From the UHGV virus genome UHGV-0207457: a DNA stretch of 36,350 nt; one strand, written 5' to 3'. Numbering within the stretch: the stretch's first letter is position 1; each line of letters opens with the position of its first letter. Below, in pieces: positions 1 through 36,350 of this stretch. Position numbers and translations under genes: made by a program. The notes beneath the pieces were generated by a model. That model worked only from the letters and a program-made list of their open reading frames with translations. It was not told the DNA's origin and did not search any database. The DNA is from a virus.

Positions 1-137
1 GTCATGATCACTTTATTGAAGTACCTTTGAGCGTCGCCTCTAAAGTATTGCTGTTAAATGCTTTTTTACAGTCAGAAATCACTCAGCAAGAGTTAGCCAG
101 GCGAATTGGCAACCCGAATGTAGTCAACCCAAAATAA
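1..137 (+). CDS. 3' end of an ORF running off the left edge; C-terminal fragment with an HTH-like segment (…QSEITQQELARRIGNPNVVNPK*)
   Basis: Frame 3 is open from position 3 to TAA at 135-137; ELARRIG resembles the first helices of an XRE-type HTH. Too short to assign. Confidence 0.3.
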   Translation, partial: HDHFIEVPLSVASKVLLLNAFLQSEITQQELARRIGNPNVVNPK

Positions 138-369
138 CTAAAAATTTTGCAATAAAAAGCCCCATCTCAAGGACAAGGCTTAGAAATCAACTAATTAACA
201 TAGTTTCCAGATCAAAGGGGTTATAATGAAATCCATAAAAGGTGATCTGTTAGCTGGGTGCTGTATATCTAAAATGTTACTTAATTAATATCGTTCTGGT
301 GGTTAGCTTTCATCGCATCCCACCATTTTTGAGTAATCTTCATGCTATTGAATTGCATCATTTCACCTC

Positions 370-1149
370 TTACTCTGCGTCTACCATGTCACATGCAAAT
401 TGAGTGTGTTTATATTCAGAATCAAATTTTGGTTCAATTACTTCAAGACGCATGTCACCTTTTTTGCTTACCCAGATGTTATAAGTGTTAACACGTCCAA
501 TAGCATCCTGTTTGGATTTACCTTCCATTGCGTTTGGATTCTCTTTAGATGGCTTGAGACTTGATTTATAAACATCATACTTGTCGGAATACACAAAAGA
601 TACAGGAACATCGTCTACCATTTTGATCTTAAGTTTACCGCCGTTATTATCAAAAGTTTTGTTTCCGTAGAGTTTATCTTTTACAGCTTCTGTTTCCTCA
701 CCATCGATAACTTTCCATGTAAATTTTGTAGTACATGCGTAAATCGCGGTAACATTCAGTTTCTTTACTTCTTCCTGTTTCGGTTGTTCTTCTTCAATCT
801 TCGCAGAAGTCTCTGAATCGCTCTCTGACGCGGTTTCTTCTTTAGATAATACATTCATCAAGTTTTGGATTTGAGCGTTGTATACAGCCTCCAGTGGCTG
901 AATCTGCCCGATATTGATCATTGTATCACGAACAGTTTTATTCCAGTTGCGTTGCTCTTGTTTAAGAGACGGATCAATCTTAACAGCCTTAACATATACT
1001 TCATGAAGTTTAGAATCCAGTGCGGAGATTGACTCATTAGCACAAATAAACTTCTCTGATTTGGTTATAGCCTTAGTGCAATCAAAGGACGCAGCATCAG
1101 CACCGAAAGCAGTAGCAGAAAGCACGATAGCAGCGATAATGTTTTTCAT
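370..1149 (-). CDS. Secreted DUF1311 (LprI/YecT-like) domain protein with a Cys-bounded C-terminal domain; possible periplasmic lysozyme-inhibitor-like moron
   Basis: ATG at 1149 with AGAGGT Shine-Dalgarno; N-terminal signal peptide MKNIIAAIVLSATAFGADA; DUF1311-type motif C-x-K-A-x-T-x-x-E-x-x-IC ... QRNW; C-terminal ~120 aa bracketed by Cys (YAC...FACD), reminiscent of an MliC-like fold. Confidence 0.65.
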   Translation of the reverse strand: MKNIIAAIVLSATAFGADAASFDCTKAITKSEKFICANESISALDSKLHEVYVKAVKIDPSLKQEQRNWNKTVRDTMINIGQIQPLEAVYNAQIQNLMNVLSKEETASESDSETSAKIEEEQPKQEEVKKLNVTAIYACTTKFTWKVIDGEETEAVKDKLYGNKTFDNNGGKLKIKMVDDVPVSFVYSDKYDVYKSSLKPSKENPNAMEGKSKQDAIGRVNTYNIWVSKKGDMRLEVIEPKFDSEYKHTQFACDMVDAE

Positions 1150-1507: not shown

Positions 1508-2062
1508 ATGAAAGAAGAATTAACCCTTACAGAAATTTCCCGTTTATATGGTTATACATTGAATGGTGGCGGTAAGCGATGGTTAGAAAGGGGATTGCCA
1601 TTTAACACCAATACCCGCCGCGTGCCAGCCAAAGAAGGAACAGAATGGGTCTTGAAAAATATTATCAACCCGCTTAAACAAACTTCTATCAAAGAACAAA
1701 TCGATGTAGAGAAATTACGCCGTGAGCGTGCTTTGGCAGATGCAGCCGAACGAGAGAACCAGGAAAAAATGAATCTCCTGATTCCTGTCGGGTATGTAGA
1801 ACAGGAACTAGCGGAATATTGCGGAAAGGTGAAACAGACTATTTTGCAGATCGCCACAATCGACGCTTTAGAAATTCTCGAATCTGCCACTGATCAGAAA
1901 ACATTGAAGAATAAGCTAAGGGAGATCATCGAGCGTCGTTTAAATGAAGTAGGGGACTTGTTCGAAAATGCGGATTTGGGAGAAGACGAGGAAGAAGAAT
2001 TAGCATTAATCGATGAACCGGAACAAGAACCAGAAGAAGACGATGAATTTGATGTGTCTTAA
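1508..2062 (+). CDS. Nu1-like small terminase / DNA-binding packaging protein candidate (184 aa) with acidic C-terminal tail
   Basis: Strong RBS GGAGG; N-terminal HTH-like segment, GGGK motif and EKLRRE motif as in lambda Nu1; acidic tail EDEEEELALIDEPEQEPEEDDEFD. Lies ~6.2 kb from the large terminase, which is atypical. Confidence 0.45.
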   Translation: MKEELTLTEISRLYGYTLNGGGKRWLERGLPFNTNTRRVPAKEGTEWVLKNIINPLKQTSIKEQIDVEKLRRERALADAAERENQEKMNLLIPVGYVEQELAEYCGKVKQTILQIATIDALEILESATDQKTLKNKLREIIERRLNEVGDLFENADLGEDEEEELALIDEPEQEPEEDDEFDVS

Positions 2063-31892: not shown

Positions 31893-32150
31893 CTATGATT
31901 TATTTTCTTGTTCTATGAAAATCTTTCTCACCTCATCAGAATAAATGTCTAGTGATTCCTCATAACATTTTCTGTATTCATCGTAAGTACTGGTGGTCTT
32001 TTGACATAGCAATTTCAATGTCTTATGTGCTCCATCAATGAAAGCATCTTCTCTATAGGTTAGCGGTCTACGCATTTCTTGGTCTACGGTTGCCAATGCC
32101 AAGCAAGAATTCATAGATAAAATTAAACCTAAAATCTTAATCATCTTCAT
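31893..32150 (-). CDS. Small exported protein, possible lipoprotein (85 aa); lysogenic-conversion or superinfection-exclusion candidate
   Basis: ATG at 32150 directly after the integrase stop; signal peptide MKMIKILGLILSMNSCLALA with Cys near the cleavage region; four further Cys. Confidence 0.45.
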   Translation of the reverse strand: MKMIKILGLILSMNSCLALATVDQEMRRPLTYREDAFIDGAHKTLKLLCQKTTSTYDEYRKCYEESLDIYSDEVRKIFIEQENKS

Positions 32151-32154
32151 TAGC

Positions 32155-33834
32155 TTAAATTCCAAATTCTTGTAATGGACCTGGTATTTCTTCTTCTGGT
32201 TTCCAGTTCTTATCTGTCAGCATGTCTAAACATGGATGCAGAACAAGCCCGTTACTCTCCAGAATCTGCCTATCATTGATAGTCTTCAAATCAACGAAGA
32301 TCCGGCCTTTCCTCGGTCCTCTTGAATTTTCTATTACAACTCTCTGGGTCTTGCCATCGATGTATTCCAGTACAAACAAGTTTTTGTACTTGTCAATCCT
32401 GCTGCACCCGATCCGTTTTAGAGCTTGCTTAATCTTAAACCGGACCTTAATGCGATCCTCGTTGTAAACATCTTCTAAATCAAATTCTGCGAGCTTCTCC
32501 CAGCCTTGAGAGTCAACAGAATACATTTCCTCTTCTGCCATCTTAAGTTGATTGTAGAGTGTTTCACGCTCGCTATTGAGGGTAGTAATCTGATCGGCTA
32601 GCTCCTTCGTTGCTCCTGTCATAGCAGAAAGGGTAATCAGGTTATCAATCTTGCGTGATATTTCATCAATCTGTACTTTCAAAGCCGGAACCGGATTAGC
32701 CTTATCTTCAGCAATCCAGATTTTATCAGCCAGCAATTGCAATACAGCTTTCTCTAATTGGTCGCCGCGAAAACTCCAGTTTGTATGCACACATTCAATA
32801 CGACTAGAGCGCATTGCATCGCATGAATAACGATATTGGTTAGGCCGTCTGTTTGTTCCTTTCACCTTAACCATAGCGGAACCGCAATGTTCACATTTCA
32901 ATAGACCAACACCACTAAGCAAGGGAATAGGTTTAACTTCTTCTTTGTCTCCAAAGTTACATGCTCTAACACCAATGCTTTTCTTAAGGTGATAAAACTC
33001 AGCGTCATCTAGCACACGAGGATAATAATCCTTTAACTCATACTTAACGCCATCTACAGAGATTTCCTTGATACCAATCAAAGCGCGGGTATGGAACAAC
33101 CTTTCAATCATTGCCCGTGACCAGTTTGAATGCCTCTTGTGACTTGCGGCTGGTGGTGGTGTGTATGTCGCGTTAAGGTGATCCAGTATCTCGGCGGTTG
33201 ACCGTCCATTCCTGCGTAATTCCACAACTTCCTGAACAATAGGGAAGAAGACCGGATGAGGAAGCACATAACCAGATGTGGTATCAGTCCACCACATATT
33301 CTTTCCAATTTCCTCGATTGCAACAGCCGGATTTTGTGGATTTTCTTGATGAGCTTTAATCTTAATCAGTGCGCTTGAGTTAGTACGATTGCGCTTAGTC
33401 TGGCTTTCCTCATTACCACGGATGAATAAAAGGATGGAGAACATCAGGTCCATCGGGTTAGCGGTAACAGTATCAAGCGAGTAGATCTTGTTATCCATGC
33501 CAGTAACAATGGTTATCCCCCTACGGATGATTGAAAGGAATAACTCCTGCGCACTGACAATATCGGCACGGGATAAACGGTCCAAGTTTTCGATGAATAG
33601 CCAGCTACCAACAGGAACGGATCTACCTATTGCATCAAGGAAACGAGATAGCGCCCCTGTTTTGGAGTTAGCACCCTTAAACGCAGATACACCCAGATCC
33701 TGATAATCATTTACCAGTTCAAGGTCATACTTTACCGCAATCTCTCTAGCCATCCTGATTTGTCGTTCATAACTCGAACCATCATTCTGACGCATAGACG
33801 AGAAGCGAATATACGAATACAGTTTAGTTTTCAT
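32155..33834 (-). CDS. Large serine recombinase (integrase), 559 aa
   Basis: N-terminal resolvase catalytic domain (YSYIRFSSMRQ ... SYERQ ... ENLDRLSR), central recombinase domain, zinc-ribbon-like CEHCGS...YRYSC, C-terminal coiled coil; ATG at 33834 (track start 33849 is TTG). Confidence 0.85.
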   Translation of the reverse strand: MKTKLYSYIRFSSMRQNDGSSYERQIRMAREIAVKYDLELVNDYQDLGVSAFKGANSKTGALSRFLDAIGRSVPVGSWLFIENLDRLSRADIVSAQELFLSIIRRGITIVTGMDNKIYSLDTVTANPMDLMFSILLFIRGNEESQTKRNRTNSSALIKIKAHQENPQNPAVAIEEIGKNMWWTDTTSGYVLPHPVFFPIVQEVVELRRNGRSTAEILDHLNATYTPPPAASHKRHSNWSRAMIERLFHTRALIGIKEISVDGVKYELKDYYPRVLDDAEFYHLKKSIGVRACNFGDKEEVKPIPLLSGVGLLKCEHCGSAMVKVKGTNRRPNQYRYSCDAMRSSRIECVHTNWSFRGDQLEKAVLQLLADKIWIAEDKANPVPALKVQIDEISRKIDNLITLSAMTGATKELADQITTLNSERETLYNQLKMAEEEMYSVDSQGWEKLAEFDLEDVYNEDRIKVRFKIKQALKRIGCSRIDKYKNLFVLEYIDGKTQRVVIENSRGPRKGRIFVDLKTINDRQILESNGLVLHPCLDMLTDKNWKPEEEIPGPLQEFGI

Positions 33835-33897
33835 ACCATTTCCAAACAAAAACGCCCCTACCGCGTATTATAACGATAGGGGCTAGGTGATTAAAGA

Positions 33898-34317
33898 TTA
33901 AAGAATTTCACGGCAGCTAATCAGGGAATAAGACGTATCACCTTTTTTAACATCAAATATAGGCGCGCCATCTACAGAATGCAGATATTTGATGTAAGAC
34001 TTACCATCTTCGGAACCATAATATTCTTCTTTCTCGTTCTTATCTTCTTTCAGTTTCGGGCTTTTGATTGTTTTATCAAATACCGGATCGTTGAAAGCAA
34101 ATTGACTATTATCATCATTCACTCGAACCTTTACACCGATAAAACCACGGTATTTGCCAGACGGCGCATGATAATAACGGTCGCCATCACTCAGGTAGCG
34201 TGTATCATCTCCTTTATATTCGAAGTAGGAATTGCACACATAATAGGTATAGGTATTAGCATTCGCAGCACCAACCAAACCCAGAGCAAGAACAACACCA
34301 GCGATAATCTTTTTCAT
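33898..34317 (-). CDS. Secreted hypothetical protein (139 aa)
   Basis: RBS AGGAAA; signal peptide MKKIIAGVVLALGLVGAANA; two Cys; AT-rich cargo region. Confidence 0.6.
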   Translation of the reverse strand: MKKIIAGVVLALGLVGAANANTYTYYVCNSYFEYKGDDTRYLSDGDRYYHAPSGKYRGFIGVKVRVNDDNSQFAFNDPVFDKTIKSPKLKEDKNEKEEYYGSEDGKSYIKYLHSVDGAPIFDVKKGDTSYSLISCREIL

Positions 34318-34362
34318 AGTAGAATTTCCTCTTGTTGTTTGAATTACGATATATTTATATCA

Positions 34363-34485
34363 TTAAAAGTTAATGCTAATAATCAGACCAAACACAACCG
34401 CACCAATCAAATCAATCCAGTTAATACACAGCGAATATTCTTTCTTGAATGTCTTAGATGAAATGCCATCATGAAATTGTTTCAT
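34363..34485 (-). CDS. Small membrane peptide (40 aa, C-terminal TM helix)
   Basis: ATG at 34485 after GGGGTGAG; MKQFHDGISSKTFKKEYSLCINWIDLIGAVVFGLIISINF. Confidence 0.3.
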   Translation of the reverse strand: MKQFHDGISSKTFKKEYSLCINWIDLIGAVVFGLIISINF

Positions 34486-34488
34486 TGC

Positions 34489-34569
34489 TCACCCCATACT
34501 AACGACAATATAAGAAAGACTAATCATGGTTGTGAGACTACCTCCCACGAATGAGATAAAAGCTAACAT
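34489..34569 (-). CDS. Tiny hydrophobic peptide (26 aa)
   Basis: ATG at 34569 with GGAGA 8 nt upstream; MLAFISFVGGSLTTMISLSYIVVSMG. Confidence 0.3.
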   Translation of the reverse strand: MLAFISFVGGSLTTMISLSYIVVSMG

Positions 34570-34625
34570 GTTTGATTCTCCATTTAAAAAGCGGTGGGAA
34601 TTACACCCACCAAATTAGAAATTAA

Positions 34626-35063
34626 TTAAGCGCGAACGATGGTCAGAGTATCCAGCAAACCTTTTTCGTATAATTCGAAACACGTTTTATATTGCTCAAT
34701 CTTCCAACCGTAGCGGGTGATCTTATTCAGTAGAATAATCACGGTATTCTCATCTAGGTATTGTCCTTGCTTACCAATTACATATGACTCGCGGGATAGT
34801 CTCAGCTTACTGAAACCTTTAACACCTAATTCCTTAGCCACCGCTTTAACCTCGTTAATCTCACCTTCTGCGGCTACATATTCAGCGTCGATAATCTCAG
34901 TTGATGATCTCAGTGCTACCAGAACTAAGGCCATTGCTTCTTCTTCGGTACGAGCAACACCAGCTTTCTCGAAAGTCATCTCACCAAATTTACGAGTCAT
35001 AATATTGAACATTGTCTGTATTCCGTTTAAATCGGCGGGAATAGTACCCGCCAAATTAGACAT
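34626..35063 (-). CDS. Hypothetical protein (145 aa), second gene of a translationally coupled pair
   Basis: ATG at 35063 overlaps the upstream stop (TAATG); no recognised domain. Confidence 0.6.
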   Translation of the reverse strand: MSNLAGTIPADLNGIQTMFNIMTRKFGEMTFEKAGVARTEEEAMALVLVALRSSTEIIDAEYVAAEGEINEVKAVAKELGVKGFSKLRLSRESYVIGKQGQYLDENTVIILLNKITRYGWKIEQYKTCFELYEKGLLDTLTIVRA

Positions 35064-35335
35064 TACTTCTTGCTGATAAACTCTTTAGCGATAAAGTTGA
35101 TTACTTCTTTCAGCTTCTTGTCTGTATCGATGCACGCTGGTAATTCTTCTTTAATATCCTGCGGCAGATACACATTGCCTTTAAAGTGGAGGAAACCATC
35201 ATTACCAATCATGTAGGAGAACATCCATTCACAATCGTTATCCGCTTCCCAGAACGCCAAGGTCTCATCCCCAATCAAGGTAATGTCCATGTTGCGACGC
35301 GCTGCGTAGTTGATGATTGCTTTACCGATGTTCAT
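35063..35335 (-). CDS. Hypothetical protein (90 aa), first gene of the coupled pair at the prophage edge
   Basis: ATG at 35335 with GAGGGGG RBS lying inside a GTACCC/GGGTAC inverted repeat; no recognised domain. Confidence 0.6.
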   Translation of the reverse strand: MNIGKAIINYAARRNMDITLIGDETLAFWEADNDCEWMFSYMIGNDGFLHFKGNVYLPQDIKEELPACIDTDKKLKEVINFIAKEFISKK

Positions 35336-35339
35336 TGTT

Positions 35340-35365
35340 GTACCCCCTCGTGTTATTGTGGGTAC
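35340..35365. promoter_or_regulatory. Inverted repeat GTACCC-N14-GGGTAC covering the RBS of the 90-aa gene, at the AT-rich to GC-rich transition; candidate translational-control hairpin or att-associated sequence
   Basis: Seen directly in sequence; on the mRNA the GGGGGUAC of the Shine-Dalgarno can pair with the upstream GUACCC. Confidence 0.3.
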
Positions 35366-35410
35366 ATGATATTTGGCAAACCTAAACAGGAGATTACTCG
35401 CCTATTTAAC

Positions 35411-35445
<35 letters not shown>

Positions 35446-35569
35446 TGCGGCAAAGGCGCTTGGCAAAGAGTTATCGCTGGTGATGGTTTAATTACAGTTA
35501 ACGAAAAGTTGTCATTTTTAACAACTGATATAGACTGCCGAATCATCTGCACATAATTACGATTCGATA

Positions 35570-36350
35570 ATGAAAAAATACCAGCAGCTTGCAGAACAAT
35601 TACGCGAGCAGATTGCGTCGGGTATCTGGCAACCCGGCGATCGTTTGCCTTCGTTGCGTGACCAGGTGGCGCTTTCAGGCATGAGCTTTATGACTGTCAG
35701 CCATGCCTATCAGTTGCTCGAAAGTCAGGGATATATTATCGCACGACCGCAGTCGGGTTATTACGTTGCGCCACAGGCAATAAAAATGCCGAAAGCGCCA
35801 GTCATTCCAGTCACTCGAGATGAAGCAGTCGATATCAACACTTATATTTTTGATATGTTGCAGGCCAGTCGCGATCCGTCGGTCGTTCCGTTTGCCTCGG
35901 CCTTTCCCGACCCGCGACTTTTCCCCCTCCAACAACTAAACCGCTCGCTGGCGCAGGTAAGCAAAACCGCCACGGCGATGAGCGTGATTGAAAACTTACC
36001 GCCAGGAAACGCAGAACTGCGTCAGGCTATTGCTCGTCGCTATGCCTTACAGGGCATCACCATTTCTCCTGATGAAATTGTCATTACTGCCGGGGCGTTA
36101 GAGGCATTAAACCTCAGTTTGCAAGCGGTAACTGAACCGGGCGATTGGGTGATAGTAGAGAATCCTTGTTTCTATGGCGCGTTGCAGGCGCTGGAACGGC
36201 TACGGCTGAAAGCGTTATCGGTGGCGACGGATGTTAAAGAAGGGATAGATCTTCAGGCGTTGGAACTGGCGTTGCAGGAGTATCCGGTGAAAGCGTGCTG
36301 GCTGATGACTAATAGCCAGAATCCACTCGGATTTACCTTAACGCCGCAAA
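35570..36350 (+). CDS. yjiR: Host MocR/GntR-family regulator (N-terminal HTH plus start of the aminotransferase-like domain), YjiR-like; runs off the right edge
   Basis: ATG at 35570; MKKYQQLAEQLREQIASGIWQPGDRLPSLRDQVALSGMSFMTVSHAYQLLESQGYIIARPQSGYYVA is a typical MocR N-terminus and matches my recollection of E. coli YjiR; GC content is clearly higher than the prophage. Confidence 0.6.
   Translation, partial: MKKYQQLAEQLREQIASGIWQPGDRLPSLRDQVALSGMSFMTVSHAYQLLESQGYIIARPQSGYYVAPQAIKMPKAPVIPVTRDEAVDINTYIFDMLQASRDPSVVPFASAFPDPRLFPLQQLNRSLAQVSKTATAMSVIENLPPGNAELRQAIARRYALQGITISPDEIVITAGALEALNLSLQAVTEPGDWVIVENPCFYGALQALERLRLKALSVATDVKEGIDLQALELALQEYPVKACWLMTNSQNPLGFTLTPQ

Follow-up and report, generated by a model that had tools for sequence, protein, structure and literature searches.

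The window analysed here, a stretch of 36,350 nucleotides listed as UHGV virus genome UHGV-0207457, is a segment of an Escherichia coli chromosome that carries a prophage of about 35 kb inside the hicB antitoxin gene. Given this insertion, the five-gene segment under study (33898-35365) is therefore the right arm of the prophage, proximal to its attachment site (attP). We propose, with a probability of about 0.5, that this arm is a mechanistic package in which a promoter slot at attP, infection-phase genes p90 and p128, integrase-tied microproteins p26 and p40, and swappable periplasmic cargo (p139) would be combined. The main sigma70 promoter would be assembled across attP, with its -35 hexamer on the left arm and its -10 hexamer on the right arm; transcription of p90 and p128 would take place on incoming or excised DNA and cease once integration parts the two hexamers, and p26 and p40 would follow by read-through or, in a related Salmonella element, by direct translational coupling. 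The first-gene slot after attP would hold p90 and p128, accessory genes of kinds found among the small early genes of virulent coliphages; the conserved core of p26, p40 and a hairpin would travel with the integrase gene (int); and a separate swap slot would receive secreted or other cargo. In this proposal, p90 and p128 would help the phage during infection, most probably as binders that counter host defences or take over the host, and would be neither toxins nor defence genes expressed in the lysogen.

The features of the segment, read from the host junction towards int, are as follows.

35373..35379, no strand assigned: attR core TTGGCAA, where the prophage meets the hicB 3' fragment; its attL counterpart lies at 106-112
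35063..35335, minus strand: p90, 90 amino acids, PHROG 6147, first gene after attP, with a strong Shine-Dalgarno sequence GAGGGGG
35034..35052, minus strand: relic hairpin GGCGGG...CCCGCC within codons 4-10 of the 145-residue open reading frame (ORF); -18 kcal/mol, z -3.2
34626-35063, minus strand: the 145-residue reading (p145), with a TAATG stop/start overlap with p90
34626..35012, minus strand: p128, the conserved form, starting at M18 of the 145-residue ORF (MFNIM...)
34592..34612, minus strand: intrinsic-terminator-like hairpin and T run after p128, found directly after p90 in elements without p128
34489..34569, minus strand: p26, 26 amino acids, uncharged and hydrophobic, with its own GGAG Shine-Dalgarno sequence
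34363..34485, minus strand: p40, 40 amino acids, tail-anchored by a transmembrane helix at the C-terminus, the N-terminus (MKQFHDGISSKTFKK) being polar
33898..34317, minus strand: p139, 139 amino acids, with a putative Sec-type signal (MKKIIAGVVLALGLVGAANA/NT) and two conserved cysteines; predicted periplasmic
33854..33883, minus strand: 30-nucleotide hairpin and T run directly upstream of int; -20.5 kcal/mol, z -4.0, loop containing TATAAT
32155..33834, minus strand: large serine integrase, with Pfam Resolvase, Recombinase and Zn_ribbon_recom domains; likely start ATG at 33834 (MKTKLYSY...)

An earlier reading made from the sequence alone had placed five minus-strand ORFs exactly where they lie, between the large serine recombinase (Resolvase, Recombinase and Zn_ribbon_recom; length 564 amino acids) and the host junction, and comparison with sister elements shows that each of them is a real gene. 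That sequence-only reading had taken p90 and the 145-residue protein for a coupled pair, possibly a toxin-antitoxin or abortive-infection module, had likened the small peptides to type I toxins, and had seen in the whole a fit to lysogenic-conversion or defence cargo, plausibly expressed in the lysogen.

A promoter-like site across attP

The prophage was assigned to hicB because hicB of strain K-12 and both window ends have the core TTGGCAA in common, at 106-112 (attL) and 35373-35379 (attR) in a three-way alignment of K-12 hicB with the left and right ends of the window. The 5' part of hicB makes up the first ~112 bases of the window, its 3' end lies at 35373-35491 (plus strand), and ydcR begins near 35572 (plus strand), both genes being identified from E. 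coli genome annotation. The prophage carries lambda-like terminase, portal, capsid and tape-measure genes and GpJ-like tail genes in addition to the large serine recombinase; the element within hicB is a temperate siphovirus-like prophage using a large serine integrase. The p90 start codon is only 37 nucleotides inside phage DNA from the att core, and the expectation that only an att site would lie beyond the integrase was too strong. Integrases about 92% identical to that of the window target ycdX and not hicB (L074/L075, in E. coli KSC64, and L112/L113, in VTB96775v), and the Salmonella element L070, whose integrase is 69% identical and starts MTKLYSY, is likewise at ycdX. The two attB sites resemble each other (TTTAGGTTTGCCAA vs TTTGGGATTCCGGG).

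Three features of the two arms bear on the promoter-like site.

35366..35371, minus strand: -10 hexamer TATCAT on the right arm; TATAAT in L084, TACCAT in Salmonella
122..127, minus strand: -35 hexamer TTGACT on the left arm, ~35 kb from the -10 hexamer when integrated; kept in the ycdX-type elements L075 and L112
157..181, minus strand: intrinsic-terminator-like hairpin on the left arm; -11.1 kcal/mol, followed by a U run

In the reconstructed attP, the hexamers come together as TTGACT-17-TATCAT (10 of 12 consensus positions), directed into p90 and about 30 nucleotides upstream of its Shine-Dalgarno sequence. Matches of this 10/12 quality are found at only 6 of the 72,700 window positions, and attL or attR alone contains no site of 9/12 or better. 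In ycdX-type elements the arrangement is TTGACT-18-TATCAT. Upstream of the -35 hexamer, the window and KSC64 have a terminator and an AT-rich tract, and VTB96775v has a different sequence. In circular DNA the 157..181 hairpin, being just upstream of the promoter-like site, would shield that site from the LprI-like gene of the left arm (370-1149, minus strand), which encodes a 259-residue protein with a weak match to the LprI (lysozyme-inhibitor) domain (E 3e-5). In the integrated state, none of p90, p26 and p139 is preceded on the minus strand by a promoter-like site of at least 9/12, and the one match on this strand falls inside p26; terminator-like hairpins follow p128 and p139. Expression in the lysogen is thus doubtful for the first two genes, as the best promoter-like site exists only across an intact attP and is split in the prophage. 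In elements with no efficient terminator in between, such as that of Salmonella, p26 and p40 would share this pattern of expression.

Several points weigh against this proposal. The promoter is a consensus match only, and the hicB and ycdX types of att site are not independent witnesses to it because their arms are nearly identical. The conservation of the arms is partly explained by integrase binding, and the same bases probably serve as integrase-binding half-sites, both arms having TACAT at a distance of 12 nucleotides from the core. Searches of IMG/VR and of metagenome contigs yielded no intact attP, and attP as considered here is therefore a reconstruction. Read-through is assumed, because two terminator-like hairpins lie between the putative promoter and p26, p139 and int. 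Weaker promoters active in the lysogen may be present, especially for p139. It should also be noted that the suggested counter-defence or host-takeover role comes from context and not from homology, because structure searches gave only generic folds.

The first-gene slot and its cassettes

At least 80% of the segment is present in about 22 complete E. coli genomes, and about 40 sister loci were obtained from IMG/VR and from assembly look-ups, in addition to the Salmonella element. From the junction to int, the gene orders are as follows.

Group A (window, L002-L007, L013-L015): p90, hairpin, p128/145, terminator, p26, p40, p139, hairpin, int; the att site is hicB for the window, L001 and L002, and is not visible for the IMG/VR contigs
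Group B (L008-L010, L012, L016, VTB96775v): p90, 13-nucleotide spacer, p128, p26, p40, 81-residue secreted protein, int; a 113-residue, N-terminally hydrophobic protein stands beside the 81-residue protein in some; att site ycdX (seen in VTB96775v)
Group C (L017-L021, KSC64): p90 variant (68% identical), terminator, p26, p40, cargo, int, with no p128; att site ycdX (seen in KSC64)
Group D (L084): att site hicB; p128 directly after the att arm, with no p90, using the Shine-Dalgarno sequence that serves p90 elsewhere; probable members are L083, L086-L088, L096 and L100, whose contigs begin at the 128-residue gene, the upstream content being outside them
Salmonella (L070-L073): att site ycdX; 82-residue p128 C-domain, TAATG, p26 homologue, ATGA, p40 homologue, 30-nucleotide hairpin, int

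Thus, p90 is found without p128 in L017-L021 and L074; p128 is found without p90 in L084, where the junction is seen, and probably in the other group D contigs; and the p128 C-domain is alone in the Salmonella loci. Where p90 and p128 are together, they are joined in three different ways, one of them the 13-nucleotide spacer of VTB96775v. We conclude that p90 and p128 are independently mobile cassettes, and their presence is independent of whether the element has chosen hicB or ycdX. The label of cargo holds for the segment as a variable accessory region: at two slots, genes are exchanged, lost or gained among sisters whose integrases are 87-100% identical, and p90, p128 and p139 show the presence/absence polymorphism typical of morons among relatives that have the integrase, p26 and p40 in common. 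The segment is AT-rich compared to the host flank (39.3% vs 49.8% G+C), but not compared to the rest of the prophage (41.9%, with a standard deviation of 2.3% for windows of equal size, 12% of which are as low as the segment or lower).

The sequence-only reading had recognised no domain in any of the five proteins, and this stands for Pfam, NCBIfam and PADLOC-DB v2, in which none of the five has a match above threshold; PDB sequence searches gave no match either. It does not stand for PHROG, in which p90 and the 145-residue protein are members of families 6147 and 14908. The remote-homology and structure check that had been suggested for these two proteins led to families without an assigned function, and the structure searches gave only generic folds. 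Residues 1-85 of p90 match positions 1-88 of the 91 in PHROG 6147 (E 4.6e-33), so that p90 is a full-length member; it has an RWD/UBC-like alpha-beta4-alpha-alpha fold and the conserved core motif WEADNDCEWMFSY...GN(I/V)YLP..IKEELP. By tblastn, p90 homologues are present in 422 phage records, nearly all of virulent phages, including phi92/phAPEC8-like phages, T1-like Drexlerviridae, RB49-like Krischvirus, Klebsiella webervirus-like phages and RaK2-like phages. The matches listed have no function name or are called 'hypothetical protein', save two with automatic 'thiol:disulfide interchange' labels. In phage Bas11, an operon that begins with the p90 homologue follows a divergent intergenic region of ~690 bp, the homologue being located upstream of a Dcm-type methyltransferase. 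In RB49 (L068 3346-3597, 4817-5086), the p90 homologue RB49p194 and the homologue of the p128 C-domain, RB49p190, are encoded on one strand at a distance of three genes, within a group of small genes that adjoins a DNA methyltransferase. This proximity of both families could reflect a common hypervariable early region or a loose functional link. Most members of PHROG 6147 and 14908 belong to virulent Stephanstirmvirinae, Drexlerviridae, Krischvirus and Webervirus-like phages, whereas here both are found in a temperate phage, beside attP.

The p128 protein is composed of a ~50-residue N-terminal unit and a ~76-residue C-domain, which is the PHROG 14908 part: residues 68-142 of p145 match positions 3-77 of the 83 in this family (E 2.1e-18). 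The C-domain stands alone in RB49-like phages and in the Salmonella element, where the homologues are 78-83 residues long, and p128 differs from the family in having the extra N-terminal unit. Some homologues of p128 (P0031, P0055, P0071) are called 'beta/alpha barrel domain-containing protein' or 'type I 3-dehydroquinate dehydratase' in NCBI records; these names look spurious, being implausible at a length of 128 residues. P0071 is a chimera of an amidohydrolase fragment with the p128 C-domain on a 1-kb contig. Amidohydrolase matches in the p128 profile search (below P0093) were rejected as artefacts of the inclusion of this chimera in the profile.

The 145-residue reading probably begins 17 codons upstream of the true start. 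The frame upstream of M18 is closed or absent in groups B and D, and many database entries already give the protein a length of 128 residues; the 17-codon extension, together with the TAATG overlap, is found in one subgroup only, group A. The hairpin at 35034..35052 is a diverged copy of the terminator after p128 and of the one after p90 in group C. In an alignment with the post-gene terminator and the L017 spacer, its stem shows compensatory changes (GGCGGG/CCCGCC vs GGTGGG/CCCACC). Because the 17 extra codons overlie this relic terminator copy, the TAATG overlap is a by-product of the cassette junction and not a conserved coupling.

These results bear directly on the possibility that p90 and p145 form a toxin-antitoxin or abortive-infection pair, that the peptides are type I toxin-like, and that the island is conversion or defence cargo expressed in the lysogen. 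The segment adjoins the integrase and the att site, its genes are small, the overlap is present in the window, and hydrophobic peptides are encoded nearby; the region also varies among relatives as defence and moron hotspots do, and the alternative cargoes include a CapR-domain/GIY-YIG-like protein, a type that is encountered in defence contexts. Nevertheless, we consider this explanation highly improbable. Each of p90 and p128 is found without the other in sisters having 87-94% identical integrases, and the overlap lies on a relic hairpin. Neither the obligate inheritance as a pair nor the recognisable toxin or antitoxin fold or family that would be expected of a type II toxin-antitoxin system was found. 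In PADLOC, p90, p145, p26 and p40 have no match at all; no toxin, antitoxin or defence family was matched in PADLOC, Pfam or NCBIfam, and an Rfam scan of the segment gave no credible match and no antisense-RNA family at E <= 1. The homologues of p90 and p128 are single genes in hundreds of virulent phages, and no promoter-like site is left at attR. We also rejected p90 as a substitute for the interrupted HicB, as it is present in ycdX-integrated elements and in virulent phages as well, and has no HicB-like match.

Another explanation is that p90, p128 or both assist the serine integrase, e.g., as a recombination directionality factor. The directionality factors of serine integrases are small and diverse, and are sometimes shared with integrase-less phages (e.g., Bxb1 gp47). 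Such a role would explain the fixed position of the two genes between attP and int: in both E. coli and Salmonella, the gene that comes first after attP on the way to an integrase of this lineage is invariably p90 or p128. Conversely, neither gene is universal among elements with near-identical integrases, the homologues are abundant in virulent phages without an integrase, and an excision driver made at infection from a promoter present only in attP would be counter-productive. This explanation is therefore barely credible, and we retain infection-phase helpers as the preferred reading of p90 and p128.

Integrase-linked microproteins and the swap slot

The two tiny hydrophobic ORFs are genuine genes, as the sequence-only reading had supposed: their substitutions are biased toward synonymous changes in their own frame only, and homologues are present in the Salmonella element. 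Among the E. coli relatives, there are 6 synonymous and 3 nonsynonymous variable sites in p26 (ratio 0.15), compared to 1:7 in other frames, and 12 synonymous and 6 nonsynonymous ones in p40 (0.13), compared to 3:15 and 1:17 out of frame; for these genes, the two other frames give ratios of 1.4-3.7. In p40, there is also an in-frame one-codon indel with a switch of the serine codon family. The Salmonella homologues keep the lengths of 26 and 40 residues and the uncharged hydrophobic character of p26, and, although five synonymous differences, one of them TCT to AGC, separate the coding sequences, the first 15 residues of p40 are unchanged. p26 and p40 are the only segment genes present in essentially every relative. 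The hairpin upstream of int, GCCCCTATCGTTATAATACGCGGTAGGGGC with its T run, is identical in Salmonella (L070 5462-5491) even though the integrases are only 69% identical, and in L100 a change from U-G to U-A preserves the stem. This hairpin may act as a terminator insulating int and, at the same time, carry the -10 hexamer of a promoter in its loop. Together, p26, p40 and the pre-int hairpin are a conserved core linked to the integrase lineage.

No relatives of these microproteins were found in 50,697 phage records (tblastn with p40 as query), and neither has a match in Pfam, PHROG, PADLOC or NCBIfam. They are small hydrophobic membrane peptides, as type I toxins are, and resemble TisB, ShoB, Ibs and Hok, as well as E. 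coli small membrane proteins of the KdpF and AcrZ type, in having 26-40 residues and a single hydrophobic helix. Unlike type I toxins, they have no detected antisense-RNA family or long structured leader, p26 is uncharged, and the two are kept as a pair that is linked to the integrase and, in Salmonella, translationally coupled to upstream genes. Both genes have ordinary Shine-Dalgarno sequences, and the plus strand facing them contains no convincing promoter, only 9/12 consensus matches at chance frequency.

The conservation of p26 and p40 raises the possibility that they, alone or together with the secreted cargo, carry the main function of the segment, acting on the envelope and made together with the integrase, and that p90 and p128 are unrelated passengers. 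Possible roles would be a block to superinfection, or the modulation of a membrane protease or complex in the decision between lysis and lysogeny. HK97 gp15 and T4 Imm are exclusion proteins that act on DNA entry, and lambda CIII and SpoVM modulate FtsH. In addition to the retention of both genes in every relative including Salmonella, the purifying selection in their own frames and the invariance of the p40 15-mer speak in favor of this explanation, as do the presence of a different hydrophobic peptide at the p26 position of L011 (an unrelated 29-residue ORF) and the coupling of the Salmonella ORFs (TAATG, ATGA) directly upstream of int. However, there is no homology to any named exclusion protein or protease modulator, and the resemblance to CIII, SpoVM, Imm and gp15 is a putative one. 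We regard this explanation, including the suggested roles, as rather unlikely, and continue to treat p26 and p40 as one component of the attP-promoter package.

The putative p139 leader, read from the sequence as MKK-IIAGVVLALGLVGAANA/NT, would be a Sec signal peptide with a positive n-region, a hydrophobic core, an AXA cleavage motif and no lipobox; homologues of p139 retain both the leader and the two cysteines. An exhaustive HMMER search of 1.84 billion representatives yielded nine clusters for this family, three of them full-length at 41-55% identity and none with a Pfam domain; tblastn against the 50,697 phage records gave no match. In PADLOC, the only match was to PDC-M63A and was sub-significant (E 0.005, 15 bits, 51 residues). 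We interpret p139 as an orphan cargo gene, predicted to be periplasmic, with a strong hairpin after it. Its alternatives in the swap slot have the same signal peptide or 5' end: the 81-residue secreted protein, the added 113-residue protein, for which the membrane anchor is a sequence-based prediction, and a 348-residue protein, the cargo of L020, with three CapR-homology domains and a GIY-YIG/MUG113-like tail.

Two observations concern the surroundings of the integrase. A 90-residue ORF on the minus strand (31893-32165), which overlaps int at the end of the latter, is 95-99% conserved in close relatives; its N-terminus is hydrophobic and signal-like, and its only matches, to DUF7938 and to an 'excisionase' PHROG, are sub-threshold (E about 0.1). 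Distant serine integrases (31-35% identity) of the IMG/VR loci L104 and L107-L109 are also inserted in ycdX; there, int begins a few tens of bases from the junction, and no p26/p40-like ORFs are present. Scans of genome contigs gave no relatives for p90 and, for the integrase, one contaminant-like 512-bp contig.

The hicB target and related systems

The insertion splits the helix-turn-helix domain of HicB between helix 2 and helix 3. The truncated HicB frame ends ...ARRIGNPNVVNPK, and the N-terminal fragment, HicB(1-104), is closed by the phage-encoded tail NPNVVNPK. Of the two lysogens examined, E. coli H2, which carries the full element, has an intact hicA, and the genome with a 5.5-kb remnant of the element has a decayed hicA, with a nonsense mutation and a 22-bp deletion. 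These observations are from L001 15500-16008 and L111. Because the target is an antitoxin gene, integration may also rewire the host HicAB system. In the remnant (L001 16008-21526, NZ_OY856299.1), only ~5.5 kb separates the hicB halves: all structural and lysis genes are deleted, both att-proximal arms are retained, and the frames of the LprI-like gene, a 184-residue gene, the integrase, p139, p40, p26, p128 and p90 are all intact by tblastn. The 184-residue gene (1508-2062, plus strand, in the window) belongs to no family. As they are retained in the remnant, it and the LprI-like gene may be further cargo relevant to the lysogen.

The segment can be compared with the moron hotspots beside int and att of other phages (the lambda b region, the morons of HK97 and HK022, and sie/gtr of P22), which it resembles in its small genes of foreign, mosaic origin, placed among conserved phage genes close to the attachment site, in their presence or absence in close relatives, and in the terminator-like hairpins on either side. 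Classical morons have their own promoter and are expressed from the repressed prophage, whereas here no convincing lysogen-active promoter was seen and the best site is destroyed by integration; moreover, two of the genes here come from families typical of virulent phages. In the integration-dependent immunity of mycobacteriophages BPs and Brujita, and in the joint-spanning promoters of Tn916-type and some other integrative and conjugative elements, the recombination site is inside an expression unit. The present case would be similar in that the integrated and circular states would express different genes. In BPs and Brujita, attP is inside the repressor coding sequence, and in Tn916 the circular joint allows a promoter to read into the transfer genes, whereas here the -35 and -10 hexamers of one putative promoter would be separated; by this analogy, a split-hexamer promoter would be a distinct variant of integration-dependent control. 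In the literature, we found no description of a serine-integrase coliphage targeting hicB or ycdX, nor of the five proteins.

A bolder formulation can be offered only tentatively, namely, that a lineage of enterobacterial serine-integrase phages has a promoter built from its attachment site, by which integration turns off, and excision turns on again, a hot-swappable slot of virulent-phage helpers, that p26 and p40 are a new integrase module, and that rewiring of HicAB is possible. Without such a promoter, the region would remain an ordinary, if well-documented, prophage accessory hotspot. The p26 and p40 genes add two conserved members to the membrane peptides of phages, with their linkage to the integrase as a genetic handle, and the insertion in hicB offers a natural test of whether HicB in truncated form can still neutralise HicA. 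If the split promoter is real, the segment would be a compact and testable example of site-specific recombination used as an on/off switch for a cassette slot, and p90, with PHROG 6147 relatives in more than 400 sequenced phages, would be marked as an infection-phase function, as would the PHROG 14908 domain.

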